NCBI GenBank assembly: GCA_963777605.1
Contig: CAVZRV010000035.1
Location: 160,001 to 224,000, forward strand
Length of the DNA stretch: 64,000 nucleotides
From: an uncultured Acidobacteriota bacterium
GTDB lineage: Bacteria > Acidobacteriota > UBA6911 > RPQK01 > JAPXNP01
Direction of reading: 5' to 3'
Shown here: piece by piece, positions 3,827 to 35,528 of the stretch
Layout: each line of letters begins with the position of its first letter
Numbering within the stretch: the first letter of the stretch is position 1
The notes under the pieces: model-generated
Databases searched by the model: none
Told to the model about the DNA's origin: nothing
The model's input: only the letters and a program-made list of their open reading frames with translations
Program-made: the position numbers and the translations under genes

Positions 3827-4384
3827 CTAAGCTAGCTGGATCCCCAACTTCCTGGCAGCCGCCTGGACCTCGGGATCCTGAGTCCCGAGCTCCCTCGGGA
3901 CCCCGATCAGCCGGATCGTGTCGGTTACGCGCTCGGCGAAGAGTGTCGCGTTGGTCCATTGCGACTCGAGGACTGACCACCAGAGAAGTCCCGCCGCGCC
4001 TTCACCGAACAGTGCGGCCGCAAGGTCCTGGGTAATCCTCCGTTCGAGGGTGGCAACCCGAGACGGGCGAAGAGATCTTCGGTGCAGTTCGGACGGATCG
4101 TCAAGGTCACAGAAGACGGAGGAGCCGGCCACCTCCAAAGCCGCGAGTGCCAATCGCCGGTTGTGGCCGCGTACGAAGTCTCCGTCATCGAGGGATTGGT
4201 TCCGAAACGGCTGAAGCGCCTCGGCCACCGCCGAAACCTGATCCAGTGCGCAGTAGAAAGCGCCATACAGTTCGGGATTGTCATGACGTCCGCTGCCCTG
4301 GTGAGCCCTGGGCACAAATAGCGGTCCCCCGACTCCTGCACCCTTCGAACGGCCGTCCCAGCCGAATACTCTGAACACCTTCAT
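3827..4384 (-). CDS. RES domain toxin (RES family NAD+ phosphorylase/ADP-ribosyltransferase-like)
   Basis: Conserved R (FRV), GRHD, YCA, E (AVAEAL), TQDLA and S (LWWSV) pattern; lies downstream of an Xre/MbcA antitoxin. Confidence 0.85.
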   Translation of the reverse strand: MKVFRVFGWDGRSKGAGVGGPLFVPRAHQGSGRHDNPELYGAFYCALDQVSAVAEALQPFRNQSLDDGDFVRGHNRRLALAALEVAGSSVFCDLDDPSELHRRSLRPSRVATLERRITQDLAAALFGEGAAGLLWWSVLESQWTNATLFAERVTDTIRLIGVPRELGTQDPEVQAAARKLGIQLA

Positions 4385-4462
4385 GACCTGGCCAACCTGG
4401 TTGAACTCGGGCAGTAAAGCCCAGGACCCCGCTGACGTTTACCCAAAATGCCTCCGGGCTTG

Positions 4463-4816
4463 TCAGGCGTAGGCCCCGGCTTCAAACTGCTCCAGCGCAG
4501 CGATGACCTCGGCGACACGGCCGTCACGAATCAGGTCGATCGGGCGCCGGTTGGCGAGATGAGCGTTGACTCCCAGCAGCCACTTTTCAGCGGTTGCTGA
4601 AGGCAGTGACGACTGGAGCCTGGAGAACACAAACTCGAGTGCCTCGAGCTTATGTCGGTTTGCCGCGTCCGGTGCCTCGGTTCGCAGCCATCGAGAGACC
4701 CGCGAGCGATCTACAGCGAGCAGTGCCGCGAGTCGGCTCTGGCTTCGAAACTGGCCGCTTAAATAGCTCACCTTGTCCCGAAATACGTCTTCCCATTGAA
4801 CCGCGGCTTCGCCCAT
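4463..4816 (-). CDS. Antitoxin Xre/MbcA/ParS family (HTH plus DUF2384 toxin-binding domain)
   Basis: HTH-like SQSRLAALLAVDRSRVSRW and C-terminal WLLGVNAHLANRRPIDLI...EAGAYA; upstream of the RES gene. Confidence 0.85.
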   Translation of the reverse strand: MGEAAVQWEDVFRDKVSYLSGQFRSQSRLAALLAVDRSRVSRWLRTEAPDAANRHKLEALEFVFSRLQSSLPSATAEKWLLGVNAHLANRRPIDLIRDGRVAEVIAALEQFEAGAYA

Positions 4817-4842: not shown

Positions 4843-4890
4843 GTAGCGATCGTTAACGCAACGATATCTGTTGCGCATAACGATCGCTAC
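4843..4890. promoter_or_regulatory. Inverted repeat upstream of the TA operon (candidate autorepression operator or hairpin)
   Basis: Perfect 13-bp arms GTAGCGATCGTTA (4843-4855) and TAACGATCGCTAC (4878-4890), with inner CGCAAC/GTTGCG around GATATC; 26 nt upstream of the antitoxin start. Confidence 0.6.
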
Positions 4891-6270
4891 GGCCTGATAT
4901 TCTGATTTAGATGGAAGACGTTTTCAGGGTCGTACCGTCGCTTGATTTTGCGGAGTCGATCGAAATTGGCACCGTAAGCGGCCCGTACCCGGTCCCCTTC
5001 TTCCTCAGTCATGAAATTCACATAGGAACCGCTGGAAGCGAACGGCTTTGAAGCCTCAAAGAAGGCACGCGCCCAGGAGACGCCTCGCTCGTCGTCCGTC
5101 TGATCACTCCAGCGTCCGTGCACGTTGAGCACGAATTTGGCGTCCCGATGGGTATAGGCCGTTGCGCTGGACGGAACGTGGTTGGCCGCGCCGCCCAGAA
5201 ACGCGATGAAGATCTCACAGTGAGGCGACGGCAACCGGGAACCGTAGTCGATCACGCAATCGAACAGCCTGTCGCCCAATTCAGTGAGGTTGTGCGATTT
5301 CCAGTAATTTCTGGCACCCGGGGTAAGCAACGGATCGAAGGCCTTCTGCCATTCAGTGTAGGGCATCTCACCGACATGCTCGCCGTGGGGATCTCCGAAA
5401 CTACGGATCGACTTGACGAGGTCTTCCCCTGCGGAAGCCTCGCCCGAATAGAAGATTGCCAGGACCAGCACCTCCCTGCCATGAATCTCCTCGGGCAGGA
5501 ACGGCAGGGGCGGCGCCTTTCTCATGACAACCCAAACGTTCAGCTCCGTCCGGGGCCGACTCAATGAAGTCGCGGTAGCGTCTCAGCACCTGCCCGGCCT
5601 GCTCAAACGGGAAGACAATCAGGCCGGCCAGCACGTTGGGGCCGACCGAATGAAGCCCGAACTCGAACTGGGTCACAACGCCAAAGTTTCCTCCTCCGCC
5701 CCGGATTGCCCAGAAGAGATCGGGATGCTCCGCCGCACAGGCCCGGACCGGCTTGCCGTCCGCCGTGACCATCTCAGCTGAGACCAGGTTGTCGATGGTC
5801 AGCCCATACTTTCGGGTCAGCCAACCGAAGCCTCCCCCCAGAGTGAGCCCGGCAATTCCAGTCGTCGAGTTGATCCCTACCGGCGTTGCCAATCCAAACG
5901 GCTGTGTCGCGGCATCGAAATCTGCGAGGGTGGCGCCGGGCTCGACCCAGGCGAGCCGTTTCTTGGGGTCAACGCGCGCCGAGGTCATCCTGGAGAAATC
6001 GATGGCGAGGCCGTCATCACAAAGAGCATTCCCGGCGATGTTGTGTCCCGCTCCCCGAATGGAAATCTCGAGTTCGTTCTCGCGAGCAAACGTAATTGCC
6101 CGCGGAACGTCGGAGGCACTCGCGCACTGAACAATGACTTCCGGTTTCCGGTCAATCATCGCGTTCCAGAGCGCACGAACTTCGTCATAGTCCGGGTCGG
6201 CTGCAACGACGGCGCGGCCGTGGATTTGGCTTCGGAGTTTTTCGACGGCTTGCTTTGACAGGTGTGGCAT
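4887..6270 (-). CDS. FAD-binding oxidoreductase (FAD_binding_4 plus BBE domain), split by one frameshift at ~5546
   Basis: RGAGHN flavinylation motif, TGIAGLTLGGGFG, RGGGGNFG, and C-terminal YVNF...KRRYDPENVFHLNQNI. Removing one C at 5546-5547 restores ...SAPDELNVW.... Confidence 0.85.
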
Positions 6271-7998: not shown

Positions 7999-9877
7999 TC
8001 ACTCCTCGCGCAGCCAGGACTTGAGATGCGCTTGCTGCTCCTCACTGGCGCCAGGAAGGACCTCCAGAGTCCAGGACGTCCGTGAAACCGCCATCAACTC
8101 CATTTCGAGCTTCTTCAACAGGTCCCTGCGGGCAACCAGTAACGTCAGCTTGTCCCCTGCCTTGTAGGAGTCGAGCCGGACCGGCCACTGGTCGGCACGC
8201 ACGCGATACTGGTTGACGGCCAGGATCTCGTCACCCACGTTCACTCCGGCCTTCTCTCCGGGACTGCCTCGTCGCACCTCGGACACCACCAGGCGTCCGT
8301 CGTCGGCCTGGGTTTTCAGCCCGGTCTCGATCGGGGGAGGCTCATCCTTGCCGGCGTCCTGCTTCTCCTTGAACCGCAGCCCGAACCAGTCGAGAGCTTC
8401 CGTGTAGTCGAGTTCTTCGGTGGTCTCCAGGACCTTGTGGAACCACCCGTCGAGATCCTGCCCGGCAACCTCCGAAGCGAGCTGTCGGAACTGTTCCGGT
8501 GTGTAGCCGTGAGGACCGGAATAGCGTTCGTAAGCCAGTCTCATTACGTCGTCCAGGTTCTTCCGATCCCGAGTGGCTTTCCGGATGCGGGCGTCGAGGA
8601 GGAACGCGATCACGTCTCCCTTGGTGTAGTAACTGATCGCCGTATTCGACGAGTTCTCATTGGGCCGATAGAGCTTGATCCAGGCGTCGAAGGACGCCAA
8701 CTGCACCGGCTGTACCAGGCGTCCCGGCGTTTCCTGCAAGTGGCTGGATCGTCTCTGAGAGAGACCGCAGAAAGGATTCGCGAGACTTCAAGCCGGCTCG
8801 CCGCAGAGCGAGGGGTCCGTAGTACGAGGTGATGCCCTCGGCGATCCAGAGGCTCCGCGTGTAGACCTCGTTCTCGTAGTCGAAAGGCCCGAGTTCCACC
8901 GGACGGAGCCGCTTGACATTCCAGACGTGAAAGTACTCATGACTGACCAGGCCGTGCCAATTTGCCCGGCTCGGCCGCCGGTTCCGGGGCGCCGACGGAT
9001 CGGCCGATTCCGGAGCGGGTTCTTCCGTATTGCCGTAGGCCCAGCGGCTGGTGTTGAGCCAAGTAGAATTCTTGTGCTCGAGACCCCCGCCAGTTTCGGT
9101 CATCAGGTTGAAGAAGACGTAGCGATTGTAGGGCAGTAATCCCCACATACGCAGGTACTCCTCGACGATCTTCTGGACGTCCCGTGCCGAGGCCGGGCCG
9201 TCCCAGACGTCGCTTTCCCCTTCGTTGACCAGGTAATGTTGCTTGCCTCCAACCTCGAACTGGTAAATCGGGGCATTCCCCGCATAAATCGGGCAGTCCA
9301 CGAGTTCGTCGAAGTTCGTTGCCCGGTAATGGTGAGGCTCCCCTCCGGGGCCCAGGGAGAGTCCGCTGATGCTCTCCTTCCACGAAGGTGGCAAAACGAG
9401 CTGAACCTCGTGGGGCCGCGGACCGTCGTCAACCAGGGTCATGAAATTCGGGGCACCGTTGAGCATGGCGAAATCAGCGTCCACCCAGTTGCCCTGGACG
9501 TTGGGTTCCCGTGCATAGATCCGGTAGGAGATTTCGAACCGGGCGTTGTCGCCGGTGTCAATGCGCCACCGGTTCTTGCGGGTCTTCTCGAACGAGAGCA
9601 GATGCCCGTCCGGGGTCTGAGCCCGAAAGTCCTCCACGTTGCGGGAGTATTCGCGCACCAGGTAGGAGCCCGGGGTCCAAACGGCCATCATGACCTCAGT
9701 TTGACGCCCTTTTGCCGGCAGGGACGCCGTCACTTCCAGGTAGTGGGTCTCGGGAGCGGAAAATCGGACCGCGTAGCGGATCGGGTCGCCGTCCTGCCCC
9801 AGTCCGATGGCGGTGCTGACCAGGATAGCCAGCAGGAAAACCTTTCCAAGAGAAAGTGTCAGGTTGTGATAGCGCAT
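7999..9877 (-). CDS. M61 family glycyl aminopeptidase with C-terminal PDZ domain, frameshift at ~8746
   Basis: Signal peptide, WTPGSY, GGGLEH, HEYFH...WIAEGITSYY, ISYYTKG and PDZ (GSPGEKAGVNVGDEILAVN). Removing one base in GG 8746-8747 joins the two ORFs. Confidence 0.88.
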
Positions 9878-10455: not shown

Positions 10456-12138
10456 TCAATGTCGGTCCGGCTGGTGGGAGAGTGCGGCAATCATGTCGAG
10501 CAGGAGCGGGAGGCGGGCCTCAGTGCCGGCGGCATCCACCTCGGAAAGGGCCACATCGAGATTGACGAATGCCTGCTCAATCAGCAGGGCGTGCTCCAGG
10601 TCTTTGGCAGCTTCCGCTGTCTTACCCGGCGCAGGCTGGGACGTTCGGGCCTGATCCAGGAGGCGCCGGGCTGCTTCGAGTCTTGCCGCGTCGGCCTTTC
10701 CCAGGGCAACCCGTCGAACGGGCAGCAATTTTGCGGTCATCTCCATCTGATCTGAAATGCCGGGAGCCTTCTCGATGAGTTGTTCGGCGATTGTGATCGC
10801 TTCGCTCCAGATTTCCGGCAGAGCTGCAAAGCGGCCCAAGTAGAGTAGATCGTCAAACCCATCAACGTTGTTGAAGCGGCTCCAAAGTCTTTCTTTCAAT
10901 TTCCCAACTTCTTTTTCACGCTGGAGTCTCCAGAGACCGCTCCACCCATAGCCAGGGCCTAGACTCCTTGGACTTGCCAGCACTGGAGGGCCGCCAATGG
11001 AAATTGAGGATGAAAGATTCTGAGTTGAGATCGGGAAGGGCCATGGACTCGCGGCCGGATCGCCCACCCCACCACTCCAGGAGGGCGGCTTCACTCGATA
11101 TTCAGAGGCCATTTCTACAGAGGCAGCTTCACGTTCTCGTGTGAGTTGTCGGGAGTCTTCTATTTCAGTGACGAGGGCCTGAATCCGGGGACGGCCTTCA
11201 ACAGCTTGTTGGGTGAGATCGTGCCGGCCCCGGACATAGGATAGCGCCTCCAGAAGTTGGGAATCCCGGCCCGTAACGGCCAACCCCTTTCCGGCGACGC
11301 AGGTCGGCAGTGTCGTCTCCGGGGAAAGAGATCCGACTTTCTCTGCCAGCAACTGAAAGCCCTCGACAAAGAGCGGGCTTTGCAGTCGCGCCACGAAGTA
11401 GAGGGCTCGCCTGAAATTCACAATCGCGGCGGGAGACGCCGGTGCGGTGCGGAACTCGGCGAAGCAGTTCTGAATTTCGCCGGTCACGTCCGGTTGCAGG
11501 TTCTGTCGCACCAACTCGCGGGCGATCAAAATCTGGATCTCGAAGGTCGTTTCGAGTTTCGGAAAGAGCTGCCGCAGTGCCCGAAACTCCTGTCGTGCCC
11601 GACCGGCATCCCGAAGCGCGATGCCCCGCAGGTAACCATCGACCGCCTGGTCCACCAGGTCGCCGTGCTCCAGCGCCGGAGTCCCGTCGGGAGCCGGCGG
11701 CCAGTGGGCAAGCTTGTCATAAAGCCACTCTGCGTCCAGCGCGGGGAACTGACTGAAGAGCCGAAAGGCAAAGAGGGTCGCGCTCGCGTATTGACTTCCC
11801 GTCGAGGCACCCGCAACCTGGCGGCGGAACTGCTCTACGAGAAATCGGGCAACGGCTTCCTTGTTTTCAGGATCCAGCCTTGCCCAGTTCAGGCCGATCG
11901 CAAGAAACTCCTGTGAGGAAAACTGGTCTGCAGGAATCGCTGCAATCGTCTCGGTGGCCTTCCGCAGGACCTGCCGGGCCGAACGCAGCTCCCCGGGTGT
12001 GATACCCAGACGATCCGCCTGTTTGGCCAAGTCCCGATCGACACCCGACGGCAGTTGGAGATCGGTTGCGGGGGAGCCGAGCAGCGAAGCGCACGCAAGC
12101 AGGGACACGAACCCGAGCAACTTCTTTGTTGGAGACAT
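10456..12138 (-). CDS. Hypothetical exported, mainly alpha-helical protein
   Basis: Long ORF. ATG 12138 begins a signal-like MSPTKKLLGFVSLLACASLLG; the upstream part of the track ORF overlaps repeat DNA. Confidence 0.65.
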   Translation of the reverse strand: MSPTKKLLGFVSLLACASLLGSPATDLQLPSGVDRDLAKQADRLGITPGELRSARQVLRKATETIAAIPADQFSSQEFLAIGLNWARLDPENKEAVARFLVEQFRRQVAGASTGSQYASATLFAFRLFSQFPALDAEWLYDKLAHWPPAPDGTPALEHGDLVDQAVDGYLRGIALRDAGRARQEFRALRQLFPKLETTFEIQILIARELVRQNLQPDVTGEIQNCFAEFRTAPASPAAIVNFRRALYFVARLQSPLFVEGFQLLAEKVGSLSPETTLPTCVAGKGLAVTGRDSQLLEALSYVRGRHDLTQQAVEGRPRIQALVTEIEDSRQLTREREAASVEMASEYRVKPPSWSGGVGDPAASPWPFPISTQNLSSSISIGGPPVLASPRSLGPGYGWSGLWRLQREKEVGKLKERLWSRFNNVDGFDDLLYLGRFAALPEIWSEAITIAEQLIEKAPGISDQMEMTAKLLPVRRVALGKADAARLEAARRLLDQARTSQPAPGKTAEAAKDLEHALLIEQAFVNLDVALSEVDAAGTEARLPLLLDMIAALSHQPDRH

Positions 12139-12187
12139 ATTCTGTCGCTCCTCCGGATATCCTAGCAGATGCAAAATCTGCACGAAA

Positions 12188-12254
12188 GGTTCAGCGCCCT
12201 GCCTCCACGCCAGCGCGGCGCTTCCGCGAATGGAGACCACTCCCAGGGTGAAAC
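12188..12254 (+). repeat. Long (67-bp) variant of the GKTTCA...GTGAAAC element
   Basis: GGTTCAG...CTCCA(...)TGGAG-ACCACTCCCAGGGTGAAAC. Confidence 0.6.
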
Positions 12255-12321
12255 CGGGCCTGGCCAACCCGGGGGCGCGGCTTCGCCTTACCCCCGGCTC
12301 TGTGTCTGGCGCCAACCGGAG

Positions 12322-12373
12322 GTTTCAAGTCGACGCCCCCCGCGCCCTGCGCGGATCATTCAGAGGGTGAAAC
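12322..12373 (+). repeat. 52-bp GKTTCA...GTGAAAC element
   Basis: GTTTCAAGTCGACGCCCC-CCGCGCCCTGCGCGG-ATCATTCAGAGGGTGAAAC. Confidence 0.7.
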
Positions 12374-12550
12374 TGGTGGAGCATCTCCAGATGAGCGCGC
12401 CGACGCAGGGTCATTTTCAGCCCGGCGGAAACGCCCCGGGAATGGGATCCGGGGCGTCAATGCCGCACTGAAAGTGCGATTCAGTCCCGGTGGCGGACTG
12501 TTTCAGAACCAACCCGAAATCAAGAATCCTGGATTGAGAATGTTCACTTC

Positions 12551-12603
12551 CGCCGGGCAAGCTGCCCGGCCGCCATACCAGGCAGGGCCTGCCTGGATTA
12601 CTC
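12551..12603. repeat. Double-hairpin REP-like element (homologous to 14374-14426)
   Basis: CGCCGGGCAAGCTGCCCGG...CCAGGCAGGGCCTGCCTGGATTACTC. Confidence 0.6.
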
Positions 12604-12644
12604 TCCCTCCAGGAACGAGGAACCAGGAACCCATCCCAAAGGTG

Positions 12645-12696
12645 GTTTCAGGTCAGCCGGGCCCCCGGCGGCGCCGGACCATTCAAAGAGTGAAAC
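12645..12696 (+). repeat. 52-bp GKTTCA...GTGAAAC element
   Basis: GTTTCAGGTCAGCCGGGCCC-CCGGCGGCGCCGG-ACCATTCAAAGAGTGAAAC. Confidence 0.7.
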
Positions 12697-12855
12697 TTGC
12701 CAAGTCCCAGCCGACCATCGCGATTCCCCCGCATTCAGTACGCGGGAGAGCGCGTGTCCGGAGGTTGATCCAATCCATCGAAGGATGCAGTTTGAAGCTA
12801 GCGGCGACGGAAGCTTTCGCTTCCTGAACTTGGCTGAGACGTTCCGGGTTGGGCA

Positions 12856-13183
12856 AAAGCGGAAGCTGCCGCTTCGCGCACTCCACATTGGGGGAGGCGC
12901 CCAAATTCAGGCTGGTGGGTGAGGAGAAGGCCGGAAGGGGATGCGAACCTCAGTGTCGAACGGCTGGTCCGGGATGCGATCTGCTCGTTGCCCTCGGCGA
13001 CGGTCCGTACACTTCCCTCTCTCATTTCGAAAATTCCGTGGGTGCTTGAGACCATGCAGGTTCCACTCCGAAGTGATCCTTCGAAGTCTGTGCCACGCTG
13101 AACCATGAACGCAAGAATTTTCTCCCGAGTTCGCCAGTACTGCAGAATTGATATGGAGTGCGCGAAGCGACAGCTTCCGCTTT
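12856..13183. repeat. Pair of 30-bp inverted REP-like repeats (29/30 identical) flanking 268 bp
   Basis: AAAGCGGAAGCTGCCGCTTCGCGCACTCCA (12856-12885) and TGGAGTGCGCGAAGCGACAGCTTCCGCTTT (13154-13183). Confidence 0.8.
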
Positions 13184-13303
13184 AAACCCCGGCAGGTCGG
13201 GGGCAATGCCGGCGAGTCCGGTTCCGCAGCCCAAGCAACGCGATGGTCAGCGTTGCCCGTGCGGCGCCGGAATACTCACAGAGTGAGGCTTAGCCTTGTC
13301 GGG

Positions 13304-13418
13304 TTGAACCGACGCAAAGGCGCTAAAGAATCTCTTGCTTTCAACAATAACGCCCTTGGCTTCCTTGGCGTCTTCGCGGTGAAATTCAACGTCTCCCAAT
13401 TTGAAGTTTCGGGTCAGC
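13304..13418 (+). repeat. Imperfect palindromic module plus left half of the GKTTCA element (homologous to 18797-18900)
   Basis: TTGAACCGACGCAAAGGCGCTAAAG...CTTCGCGGTGAAA...TTGAAGTTTCGGGTCAGC. Confidence 0.65.
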
Positions 13419-14169
13419 GAGCCTCCCCCTCGACCACGGCTTCCGGGAACCGTCCCTCGACGCCACGGCGGAGACGATCGAGCAGGAGCAGCATCTCGAG
13501 CAGGTCGGTGGTCGCCAGTGACAAGCTGTCGTGGATGGTTACCCAGCCGTCGATGGAACGCTGAATTGCTTGCAGGGCCATCCCGGCTGAGCGCGCTGCG
13601 TCCTCCTTTGCGAAGGGTTCATCGGCTTCCTCAGCCCTCCCCCTGGACGAGACTGCCCGTGAAAGCTTTCCGAAGATCAGGTAGCGATAATGCAGAATCG
13701 ATTCGAGGGCTTCGGTGCAGCCCTCGATGGTCTCTTTGCCTATGCCCTTCTCAGGAGCAATGCCCAGTTCGACCTTCTTCATGACCCCGGCTGCAGCGGC
13801 CGCGAGAGCGTCCTGCACGAGGTTGATCGGATGGCAGCAATCGCTAACGTATTTTCGAGCCTGCTGGACCAGATCGTCATTCAAGAGCTCCGGGACGGCG
13901 CACTCGCTCCCGGAATCGTCTTCGCAGATTTCTTCCCGATCCAACCCTTGCGCCCTCATGGCCTCCGCAAGCAGATCAGCGGTCGTGTCGAGACAACCGG
14001 AGATCGAAGCGAAGGGATCTTCGTCCGAAAACTCCATTTCCTGGTCGATCGCGAACTGGAGACAGTTCTCCTGGTGCGGGCAACGTGCACACCGCCGGTC
14101 GCAGTAGTTGTAGATCCCCGGGATGTGCCCGGGAGTCGCCGCCAGTTCAAGTAGTCGCTTCGCATCCAT
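13414..14169 (-). CDS. Conserved hypothetical protein with N-terminal Cys cluster (putative metal binding)
   Basis: GIYNYCDRRCARCPHQENC motif followed by a helical body and C-terminal RFPEA. Confidence 0.75.
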   Translation of the reverse strand: MDAKRLLELAATPGHIPGIYNYCDRRCARCPHQENCLQFAIDQEMEFSDEDPFASISGCLDTTADLLAEAMRAQGLDREEICEDDSGSECAVPELLNDDLVQQARKYVSDCCHPINLVQDALAAAAAGVMKKVELGIAPEKGIGKETIEGCTEALESILHYRYLIFGKLSRAVSSRGRAEEADEPFAKEDAARSAGMALQAIQRSIDGWVTIHDSLSLATTDLLEMLLLLDRLRRGVEGRFPEAVVEGEAR

Positions 14170-17682: not shown

Positions 17683-18747
17683 TCAGATTTCGAGGGCTTT
17701 GAGGAACTCTTTAGCGACCTTGTTTTGCTCGTACTCCTCTACTCTCTGCAAGGCCCCGGCAGAAAAGAAGCGCCGAAGTTCCGCATCACCCAACATCCGG
17801 GCAAGCAAGCGGCTCAACTCTCCAGGGTCACCGGGCCGGAACAACAGTCCGACTTGATTCTCTTTCACGACTTCCGGAGTTGCGCCCGCCCGGGCTGCCA
17901 CGATCGGCAGGCCCGCCGCCATCGCCTCGAGGAAGACGATTCCAAAGCCTTCCTGCAGGCTCGGCAAGCAGAACAAATCGGCTTCAAAATAGTGACGCAT
18001 CAACTGGATACGATCTCGGACCGCCCCGAGAAATCTCAGGTTGGGCCCCAGGCCGAGGTCATCCGCCAGTCTCCGGAGGCTGTCCAGCCGGGGGCCGATT
18101 CCCACGATTCGAACCTGCACATCGGGGATCCGTTGCCGCAAAAGGAAGAGGGCCTTAAGCAGTGTAACGGTGTCCTTGCGACGATACTGGTGGGCAACGC
18201 TGAGTATCGTCGGCCGGGGATCTGATCGCAAGAGAACCTGACATCTCATCTCCCTCCAGACGGACAGGTCAATACACTCCGGGACGATCGCCAGCTGCTC
18301 CCGCTTCAAGCCGTAAGCCCGTTCCGCGGTCCCGGCACAGTACCGGCTGGTTACCAGCGCGCGCCGGGCATTGCGGGCATTGGTCATTTCCAGGCTCGCC
18401 TGGAACCTCAGCTTCAGCCTTTTCGCCGGCGCTTCAAAACGGGCCTCGTCTGCGGAGACTCCCTTCAGTGCCAGGAAATAGCTCCCGGTTCCTGCCCGGG
18501 AAAGAGCGCACCCGTCGATGTCGAAGCCAAGAAGGGCGTCGAACTGGGATCTCCGCAACCGGGGAACGGTTCGGAGGTTAGCGCAGAGGCGATCGACAAG
18601 CCTGGCACTCGCTCCACTCCGGCTTGTGAACGGAAACACCCGGTGCCCCAGAGACTCGAGCCCGAGCTGCAATTGCTGAATGGCTACAGCCGTGCCGGAT
18701 CCCCGGACCGGGTCCGTGGTCCAGGTGTTAACGAACGCAATCTTCAT
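17683..18747 (-). CDS. Glycosyltransferase family 4
   Basis: MKIAF start; PSLQEGFGIVFLEAMAAGLP (EX7E) motif. Confidence 0.9.
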   Translation of the reverse strand: MKIAFVNTWTTDPVRGSGTAVAIQQLQLGLESLGHRVFPFTSRSGASARLVDRLCANLRTVPRLRRSQFDALLGFDIDGCALSRAGTGSYFLALKGVSADEARFEAPAKRLKLRFQASLEMTNARNARRALVTSRYCAGTAERAYGLKREQLAIVPECIDLSVWREMRCQVLLRSDPRPTILSVAHQYRRKDTVTLLKALFLLRQRIPDVQVRIVGIGPRLDSLRRLADDLGLGPNLRFLGAVRDRIQLMRHYFEADLFCLPSLQEGFGIVFLEAMAAGLPIVAARAGATPEVVKENQVGLLFRPGDPGELSRLLARMLGDAELRRFFSAGALQRVEEYEQNKVAKEFLKALEI

Positions 18748-18796
18748 GGAACCACCCATGCGGATCACTCAAAGAGGGAAAATTGCCACGGCTCTA

Positions 18797-18940
18797 TTGA
18801 ACCGCGCCAAGGCGCGAAGCCTTTCTTTGTTTTGGACCAAGAGAGCCCTGGTGATCTTTGCGGTGAAAATCGAAGCCTCCAGATTGAAGGTTCAGGTGAG
18901 CCGCTCCCTCCGCGCGCGGAGACCATGCAGCGAGTGAAAC
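18797..18940 (+). repeat. Palindromic module followed by a 52-bp GKTTCA...GTGAAAC element (18889-18940)
   Basis: TTGAACCGCGCCAAGGCGCGAAG...CTTTGCGGTGAAA..., then GGTTCAGGTGAGCCGCTCC-CTCCGCGCGCGGAG-ACCATGCAGCGAGTGAAAC. Confidence 0.7.
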
Positions 18941-18959
18941 TGAGCCGGGCGCCTTGGTT

Positions 18960-19137
18960 TCAGCCCAGGGCTTGCCTTGGGTCTGTGGTCCTGCACTTCG
19001 ATTGCGGCCTGTAAGGTCGCGCCCCGGATTCACCTCGTCCGAAGAGGTGTTCAGCCCCTTCAGGGCTGGATTCTTGATGGGTGGACCGTAAACCCAGGCA
19101 AATGCCTGGCCTGGAAACAGGCCCCCTTCAGGGGCCA
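18960..19137. repeat. REP doublet (REPIN-like inverted pair)
   Basis: CAGCCCAGGGCTTGCCTTGGG...GCGGCCTGTAAGGTCGC and inverted AGCCCCTTCAGGGCT...CCCAGGCAAATGCCTGG...GGCCCCCTTCAGGGGCC. Confidence 0.55.
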
Positions 19138-19299
19138 GCCCGGCGGCGATCCTGTGATCATCACTCATCCACGTCTGGCTCCTGACCAGGAACCAGGATC
19201 CAGCCGATAATCACGGCCTTGGCTCTCCACCGATCGCCTTTATCTCCATCCAGACGTGTCCAAATCGTCCCGGCTTTCCAACTCATCCAGATTGGCCCA

Positions 19300-19632
19300 T
19301 TAGGTGAGCTGGTCGACTTTGGCGGCCAGGATGAAGTCATTCTCGCTGAGCCCGTCGATGGCATGAGTCCAGAGCTTTATTCCCACCTTGCCCCAGGACA
19401 GGAAGAGATCCGGGTGGTGCTGCTCCTCTTCTGCAACCTCGCCAATCTTGTTGACGAAGTCCAGTGCCTGCTTGAAGTCGTCAAATTTGAACTCCCGTTC
19501 GAGGTGATGCCCATCGGTCACCTTCCAGTCCGGGTCGATTTCATCCTTGAACGCAGTCAGTTTCTCACCTCGGAGCGGCGGAGTGTCTCCGCTGCATGGC
19601 TTGCATTTTCTTGTTTCCAGGTTATTTGACAT
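19300..19632 (-). CDS. phhB: Pterin-4-alpha-carbinolamine dehydratase
   Basis: CKPC, AEEEQHHPD and WTHAIDGLSENDFILAAK motifs. Confidence 0.92.
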   Translation of the reverse strand: MSNNLETRKCKPCSGDTPPLRGEKLTAFKDEIDPDWKVTDGHHLEREFKFDDFKQALDFVNKIGEVAEEEQHHPDLFLSWGKVGIKLWTHAIDGLSENDFILAAKVDQLT

Positions 19633-35408: not shown

Positions 35409-35498
35409 CGAAGCCGCGTCATCTTACCACAGGGTTTGAGGGTTTGGGGGTTTCGTTGGAAGCGCCAGCGTTCGCTTCCGTGCGACCTGCCGGGTTTC

Positions 35499-35528
35499 AC
35501 AGCGAAACCTGTCGCTTCGCGCACTTCA
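35499..35528 (+). repeat. Degenerate copy (25/30) of the 12856-12885 REP-like repeat
   Basis: ACAGCGAAACCTGTCGCTTCGCGCACTTCA. Confidence 0.6.

Follow-up and report, generated by a model that had tools for sequence, protein, structure and literature searches.

Gene-less cassettes joined by a sharp core sequence form an apparently undescribed and probably mobile family

The window analyzed here, meaning the whole 64-kb stretch of DNA under study, is ordinary chromosome of an Acidobacteriota bacterium, in which Pfam names housekeeping and metabolic genes. We examined 66 of its open reading frames (ORFs), comprising the main long ORF at each position, drawn from 188 of at least 100 aa, and some shorter ones over the arrays described below. 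The best named relatives of its glutamyl-tRNA synthetase are Acidobacteriota, with at most 71% identity. No tRNA or tmRNA was detected in the window, and the number of Rfam families reaching the gathering score there was 0. At 3827-4816 a RES-domain gene lies beside an Xre/MbcA/ParS antitoxin-like gene, with which it likely forms a toxin-antitoxin pair. An FAD-linked oxidase (4887-6270) and an M61 peptidase (7999-9877) are each split over two overlapping frames, which suggests frameshifts or assembly errors.

The window holds two arrays of non-coding units, both lying between two minus-strand genes. The main array begins at the 3' end of a host gene (13414..14169, minus strand) for a 251-aa protein with a YNYCDRxCxRC cysteine motif; this protein falls in no Pfam or NCBIfam family, has 212 homologues in several phyla, and its nearest homologue ends at the same position. 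Its downstream neighbor, also on the minus strand, is a gene without a family match (10456..12138). Formally, a 619-aa ORF (10456..12315) overruns a 67-bp unit end of the array; its likely start, judged by a Met just ahead of a signal-peptide-like stretch, is 12138, and its protein is probably secreted. No terminator-like site occurs between 12050 and 13500, and promoter and terminator scans returned 0 sites. The second array lies between a glycosyltransferase gene (17683..18768) and a pterin dehydratase gene (19300..19632).

Both arrays are organized by a short sequence that forms one end of each unit, which we refer to as the constant end. Four full copies read GKTTCA...TGAAAC on the plus strand: a 67-bp variant (12188..12254), the last unit end before the host promoter region, and three copies of 52 bp at 12322..12373 (including the junction core), 12645..12696 and 18889..18940, the last with a central perfect palindrome of 14 bp. 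The positions, lengths (three of 52 bp, one of 67 bp), common orientation in the window and 19-nt right arm that the original prediction had assigned to these four elements all hold. Its inverted ends are likewise found in four of four copies, two of which start with GGTTCA and thus carry one mismatch; a length of exactly 52 bp is true of the three window copies and not of the family, where it ranges from 52 to 56 bp in the relative introduced below. Two further plus-strand copies had been missed. One is degenerate (13238..13289; z 8.5 against 12645) and, read on the minus strand, stops at CTGA without TGAAAC behind it. The other is degenerate and truncated (~18745..18782; z 4.7 against 12645; covariance model 11.6 bits, E 2.2) and runs into the start region of the glycosyltransferase gene. 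The 67-bp variant has a 5-bp stem with a 23-nt loop and scores 16 bits (E 0.13).

The two-arm pattern matched 4 times in the window and 0 times in each of 100 shuffles. Since the pattern was drawn from the tested copies themselves, a leave-one-out test is the fairer control: the 52-mers then score 30.9, 37.4 and 33.4 bits, against a highest score of 16.5-19.1 bits in 20 resampled windows. The window copies are mutually only 60-73% alike.

On the boundary of the unit the original prediction was wrong or unsupported. The sequence at 13406..13418 (plus strand), which it read as the left half of a further element, is really the host-side junction core, placed on the stop codon of the 251-aa gene and identical to the core of the 12645 copy at 14 of 20 positions. 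The predicted spacers of 67 and 271 bp stand, whereas that of 709 bp consists of two cargos (541 and 116 bp), because the degenerate copy at 13238-13289 splits it. As had been expected, the spacers hold no credible genes: the six ORFs that overlap them (100-138 aa) all lack a Pfam or NCBIfam match.

The cargos differ in kind. Cargo A (12255..12321, 67 bp) is a hairpin module that is not homologous to the other two cargos of its array compared with it or to 18941-19299 (z -0.7 to 1.4). Cargo B (12374..12644, 271 bp) contains several hairpins, with inner TTTCAG motifs at ~12414 and ~12500 and folding z-scores of -5.2 and -4.3. Cargo C (12697..13237, 541 bp) holds an inverted pair of GGAG-footed hairpins, which we take to be REPIN-like; their 33-nt arms (12856-12888 and 13151-13183) are 94% complementary and 262 nt apart. 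A third copy of this hairpin lies outside the array (35483-35528), and no cognate transposase was found in the window. A 13-nt inverted repeat with arms at 12710-12722 and 13239-13251 brackets cargo C, one arm coinciding with the broken end of the 13238 copy; it possibly marks a separate insertion or inversion. Cargo D (13290..13405, 116 bp) has a homologous second copy in the other array (18783..18888; z 8.7), and the units 13238-13418 and ~18745-18895 are homologous across core, cargo and end. Cargo E (18941..19299) consists of palindromic modules and reaches the stop of the pterin dehydratase gene. On its host side, a core candidate at 18957 matches at only 8 of 20 positions. The end of the pterin dehydratase gene (19286-19314) resembles the junction of the 18889 element (18878-18906) at 72% over 29 nt and may be a decayed host-side core. 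Among cargos A, B, C and E no clear homology was found (best z 2.7).

A scan of 185,579 species genomes with the strict pattern gave 42 matches at 41 loci, where our own arithmetic predicts ~48 chance matches at even base composition. We rejected 37 of the 41 loci as chance or coding matches, none scoring above 20.2 bits with the covariance model; seven of these (L001, L005, L009, L010, L014, L027 and L032) have in common a 56-bp coding context, presumably from an acyl-CoA ligase-like gene, judging by its reading frame. True relatives occur in one of the 185,579 genomes, the chromosome OZ242296.1 of a Ca. Versatilivorator sp. (class Terriglobia), a count to be read as a lower bound since the strict pattern missed variant copies even within the loci it found. 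These are four loci with five matches (L003, L019, L026 and L038; ~80.4 kb in all). The Versatilivorator copies helped to train the covariance model, and independent homology comes instead from direct alignment (79.7% over 59 nt between L038 and the window copy at 12645, the one nearest to the Versatilivorator copies) and from a common architecture.

In Versatilivorator the element is one end of a non-coding unit of ~184 bp, of which 5 full units are 89-96% identical. The tandem units of L038 are 96% alike and match those of other loci at 89-93%. They adjoin unrelated genes: a PQQ dehydrogenase, proS, a PP-loop gene/purD and a transporter region. Arrays are co-oriented and comprise 1-4 units; four ends lie in L003 (two are degenerate or truncated), three in L038 and two in L019, and L026 has a single end, an orphan start and, set apart from these, a pair that runs the opposite way. 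The co-orientation proposed for the whole genome fails at this last locus, which holds both orientations 2.2 kb apart, and units run antisense to the neighboring genes at three places (L026 12185/12280, L026 19140 and L003 3621). In L003, L019 and L038 the best-preserved units lie beside the host core and degenerate ones farthest away; this gradient is reversed in the main array of the window.

The cargo varies inside single arrays, and L019 and L038 have a second cargo in common (z 21). The same end with different cargos, and the same cargo at different loci, bear out the view that the elements partition modular non-coding units. Window cargo D is not homologous to Versatilivorator cargo 1 (z 0.3). 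A coding origin of the cargo was ruled out, as no synonymous excess is seen: across six frames, 1-5 of 13 changes are synonymous, near the neutral 23-29%. Several insertions are nested in cargos: a group II intron (Rfam domains and reverse transcriptase fragments), a DDE insertion sequence with a TTAT duplication, a short derivative of this DDE element, and a tandem DDE element with an ATTAAA duplication. At L003 5655-9985 the group II intron, a DDE insertion sequence and short derivatives all occupy one array, and this insertion sequence family appears to favor a T-rich tract of the cargo. At L038 6069-9900 a DDE insertion sequence of 1916 bp is perfectly duplicated in tandem inside a cargo; the duplication may be real or an assembly artefact. 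At L026 12225-12262 a 7-bp unit, repeated five times, is expanded within a constant end between stem and core. Short-period (9-10 bp) repeats of several kinds are present in cargos (L003 3648, 5423 and 5611; L038 9932 and 10151; window 13369). Repeats of such kind occur beside GxxExxY nuclease genes, none of which was found in any scanned locus.

The window shares the unit plan of the Versatilivorator arrays. Read on the minus strand of the window, a unit consists of a core, a variable palindromic cargo and the constant end (a GTTTCAC arm, a small stem and a G-rich tract), whose last part is a new copy of the core; the core reads CTWG-YCTGAAAC(AA). In the 80.4 kb of Versatilivorator sequence, all 12 core 13-mers with 0-1 mismatch fall at unit junctions; with 2 mismatches there are 3, against a background of 3.0 from the 37 control loci. 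The start and end cores of one unit match at 14-17 of 20 positions, and each unit has direct core repeats of 9-14 nt on its two sides. In three degenerate copies at distal positions the sequence stops at CTAG, CTTG or CTGA and TGAAAC is missing (L038 5913-5916, L003 ~5105 and window 13246-13249), whereas the terminal copies at L026 10001 and window 12188 keep TGAAMC and then pass into host DNA. The units have a defined anatomy, are dispersed to unrelated genes and follow one another head to tail in arrays whose cargo is uniform or mixed, with cores at the junctions; all of this junction logic derives from two genomes.

The constant end itself folds poorly. The 52-mer had been proposed as a self-contained folded site; nine copies have top-strand folding z-scores of -2.9 to +1.7, only one below -2, and they fold no better than shuffles. 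We consequently dropped a stable 52-mer hairpin, given z-scores mostly near 0. The predicted central palindrome, with its symmetry kept while its sequence differs, found modest support: a perfect stem of 5-6 bp adjoins the right arm in all four full window copies, with differing sequences (individual p 0.04-0.17; Fisher combined p 0.009, the anchor having been picked by the analyst). Summed over 16 copies, the anchored stems reach 59 against 49.4 +/- 3.8, with one anchor misplaced. The consensus structure has an outer 6-bp stem and an inner 4-bp stem, and covariation involves 2 of 10 pairs, with 3 cells of two-sided changes, in an alignment that was fitted to the model and is biased toward it. 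A small right-arm hairpin is 88% pairable with 0 two-sided changes and therefore uninformative. Pairing between cargo ends does not reach significance in the window (3 of 24 permutations were equally good), and its comparison with pairing of element ends did not discriminate between the two. A hammerhead ribozyme was also considered and rejected, its core motif being absent by eye.

No empty site turned up in the DNA, and the evidence of movement is indirect, coming from a protein. At L003 the last codons of the PQQ dehydrogenase gene carry the core, and the unit adds a tail of 27 aa. Among 115 scored homologues (of 120 listed), the residue after a conserved Leu is Pro in 101; it is Ser in the L003 protein, where the change from Pro to Ser falls right behind the CTTG-encoded Leu, and Ser is found in five of the 115, four besides the L003 protein. 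The tail has a median of 3 residues in 107 distant homologues against 27 in the L003 protein. In its seven nearest relatives (81-92% identity) the tail is 3-26 residues long and differs starting at the core, so that, at the protein level, the eight close dehydrogenases differ at the element boundary as the original prediction had anticipated for orthologous loci. A TKGH/TNGH module is common to four of these eight tails, those of L003 and three others, and for this reason the differences could also reflect one old insertion followed by drift. Compared as a peptide with a protein library, the unit matched 8 spurious ORFs that belong to no protein family; P0363 spans three tandem units, P0366 covers two units with another cargo and a start, and a further one contains a unit whose cargo is only a few bases long. 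Taken together, we consider it probable that the cassettes are mobile by insertion at core-like sites. Shuffling of cassettes, as originally envisaged, was not borne out over repeated insertion and local duplication.

The full model that we favor, with chances that we put at about even, regards the cassette as non-coding and mobile but non-autonomous, with the 52-mer as its constant end and an HUH enzyme as its mover. Probably, units insert where the sequence resembles the core, in most cases at the 3' end of a gene, and a fresh core is left each time at the far end of the unit, so that arrays grow in one orientation. Single-strand cleavage and joining might take place just 3' of CTWG, the enzyme being an HUH tyrosine transposase (TnpA-REP, IS200 or IS91 kind) whose gene lies elsewhere in the genome, and movement could proceed via a single-stranded circle or rolling-circle-like amplification. 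The arrays might then serve as harmless landing zones for insertion sequences and group II introns. HUH chemistry would fit because the three old copies stop at CTAG, CTTG or CTGA and the Pro-to-Ser switch follows CTTG. According to passages of the respective sources, IS91 targets CTTG without duplication (PMC13181058), sub-terminal hairpins are bound by IS200/IS605 enzymes, which rely on a short guide beside them (10.1101/279083), and strand transfer by TnpA-REP, an enzyme that cleaves at CT, yields tandem BIME arrays of variable composition (PMC3333891). The copies at L026 10001 and window 12188 keep TGAAMC and are not accounted for by a clean cut behind CTWG, and both the weak folding of the end and the lack of a GTAG foot count against the model. 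No HUH, recombinase or other candidate enzyme gene was found among the 66 window ORFs (64 kb), which include no transposase or cas gene either, and none among 38 ORFs of the four related loci (80 kb); a crude motif scan of all 41 loci gave one match, in an unrelated locus. The tyrosine recombinase or HUH/RAYT nuclease expected to co-occur with the elements was not found in the 144 kb examined.

By analogy, the cassettes might work like a REP/BIME array or a gene-less derivative of IS91 or IS200, while their layout recalls integron cassettes. REP/BIME and REPIN sequences with their TnpA-REP (RAYT), as portrayed in parts of PMC3333891, PMC2817692 and PMC3733652, are likewise intergenic, mostly behind genes, arranged in modular head-to-tail arrays with variable linkers, amplified locally and targeted by insertion sequences, with the enzyme gene elsewhere. 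The loci examined are in keeping with this, being intergenic, clustered and modular with multi-copy tandem arrays. Unlike REPs, the constant end has no GT(A/G)G at the foot of a 20-40 nt hairpin and neither a GTAG nor a CGTC foot, GGAG-footed hairpins being present only inside cargo; the units are co-oriented rather than inverted pairs, have a core of 12-14 nt at both junctions and carry other REP-like modules as cargo. No cognate RAYT gene flanked by the repeat was found in the 144 kb. With IS91 (HUH Y2, rolling circle) and IS200/IS605 (HUH Y1), in the portions of PMC13181058 and 10.1101/279083 that describe them, the cassettes have in common an asymmetric unit, a structured sub-terminal end and, apparently, a CTTG-like tetranucleotide at both junctions with no variable target duplication. 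They differ in lacking a transposase gene, in their size of ~60-600 bp and in a junction sequence longer than four bases. An autonomous element with an HUH transposase and the same ends was found neither in plasmid and phage searches, where BLAST gave only noise (E 0.1-0.4) or no match, nor among the 8 peptide matches.

Several other explanations have to be weighed against this HUH model. An integron-like or other site-specific recombinase (tyrosine or IS110-type) would treat the core as an att site, from which cassettes excise as circles, re-insert and can be reordered. The direct core repeats around each unit, the strict co-orientation inside arrays of mixed cargo and the best-preserved units beside the host core in three Versatilivorator loci all speak for it, and integron cassettes similarly combine cargo and site in one orientation, with AAC/GTT triplets at inverted ends and a variable core sequence. 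The resemblance ends at the site itself. The attC R box RYYYAAC pairs with GTTRRRY (PMC5027507, in the text available), whereas the element ends are GTGAAAC and GKTTCAR, and the original prediction was right that the attC motif is not that of the element. The integron kinship it raised does not follow: the R box is missing, the AAC and GTT triplets stand in reverse order within the 52-mer (the AAC...GTT order is present across the cargo), and there is neither a single long imperfect hairpin with an L box and an unpaired spacer nor any identified extrahelical bases. Furthermore, the cassettes are gene-less, arrays are scattered over many loci, no intI, attI or nearby integrase was found in the window or the four related loci, cargo-end pairing is not significant in the window, and the age gradient is reversed in its main array. 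We therefore regard a site-specific recombinase as unlikely. A dedicated cassette system is slightly less improbable in our estimation, and still doubtful: here a separate enzyme would read the constant end, the GTTTCA arm would guide it by pairing with the TGAAAC core, repeat modules of other selfish nucleases would be captured as cargo, and cassettes would be added, removed and reordered at gene ends.

A passive repeat mosaic seems quite improbable; in it a few old insertions would have become many through slippage or unequal crossing-over between cores, been homogenized by conversion and persisted at most for their RNA structure in 3' UTRs, no dedicated enzyme being active now. It would account for the greater likeness of the tandem L038 units to each other than to other loci, for the start of most arrays at a gene 3' end, for the divergence of the window copies and for the common tail module in relatives; it leaves unexplained the 90%-identical units at unrelated genes and the exact core junctions (12 of 12), and the antisense orientation at three places, the lack of a terminator-like site and the lack of an Rfam family also speak against it (Rfam matches in the four related loci were limited to one tRNA and two domains of a group II intron, and a further Rfam search gave one noise match at E 4.5). 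Still less probable is a DDE-mobilized MITE, either the 52-mer itself or a cargo with TG...CA ends, that prefers to insert beside itself. Bacterial MITEs are also short, gene-less, dispersed and bounded by inverted ends, and they extend host reading frames, gene-tail fusions being common for them in what PMC3184786 reports. Here the inverted ends span 6 bp (8 bp in Versatilivorator), and beyond the hexamer the two ends of cargo 1 agree at 5-6 of 10 positions and form a closing stem. However, none of the 10 elements inspected has a consistent target-site duplication, the longest direct repeat being 0-4 nt and the 4-nt repeats belonging to the neighboring unit, so the elements are no classic MITE. 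In addition, the unit is asymmetric and folds weakly, and the 52-mer never stands alone in host DNA in the loci examined. A degenerate CRISPR array or a coding repeat has almost no credence with us. The termini of the constant end may resemble the ends of CRISPR repeats, and translation of the right arm in one frame gives similar peptides; but in place of near-identical repeats with unique spacers of even length there are spacers of 5-541 bp that recur between loci, a combination of length and reuse that largely refutes a CRISPR, and neither a cas gene in the scanned ORFs nor an Rfam CRISPR match was found. A coding repeat is contradicted by frameshifting indels in the copies, the missing synonymous excess and peptide matches without a family.

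PMC3333891 and the abstract of PMC8266576 describe the assembly and spread of REP/BIME-type mosaics in living cells as a question of long standing. We found no description of the present cassette family in the open-access literature; the main text of PMC3733652, which describes acidobacterial tyrosine transposases with inverted repeats of another kind on their flanks, does not contain the element motif, and the TIR families in its figures and supplements, acidobacterial ones included, may bear on novelty. The family is real and apparently undescribed, and its non-coding cassettes are marked by a sharp junction core. It offers a readable core and recent tandem units that are 90-96% identical in a complete chromosome, and because the core is sharp and the units are recent, the insertion point, circular intermediates and the enzyme are directly testable. 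Should target choice depend on the internal arm, the enzyme could serve as a single-strand integrase that can be retargeted. If a dedicated cassette system were at work, it would rewrite 3' UTRs and protein tails as an integron-like assembly line with a self-encoded target rule. Even if the cassettes were only another non-autonomous repeat, they would matter for genome annotation, since they create spurious ORFs and false protein tails.
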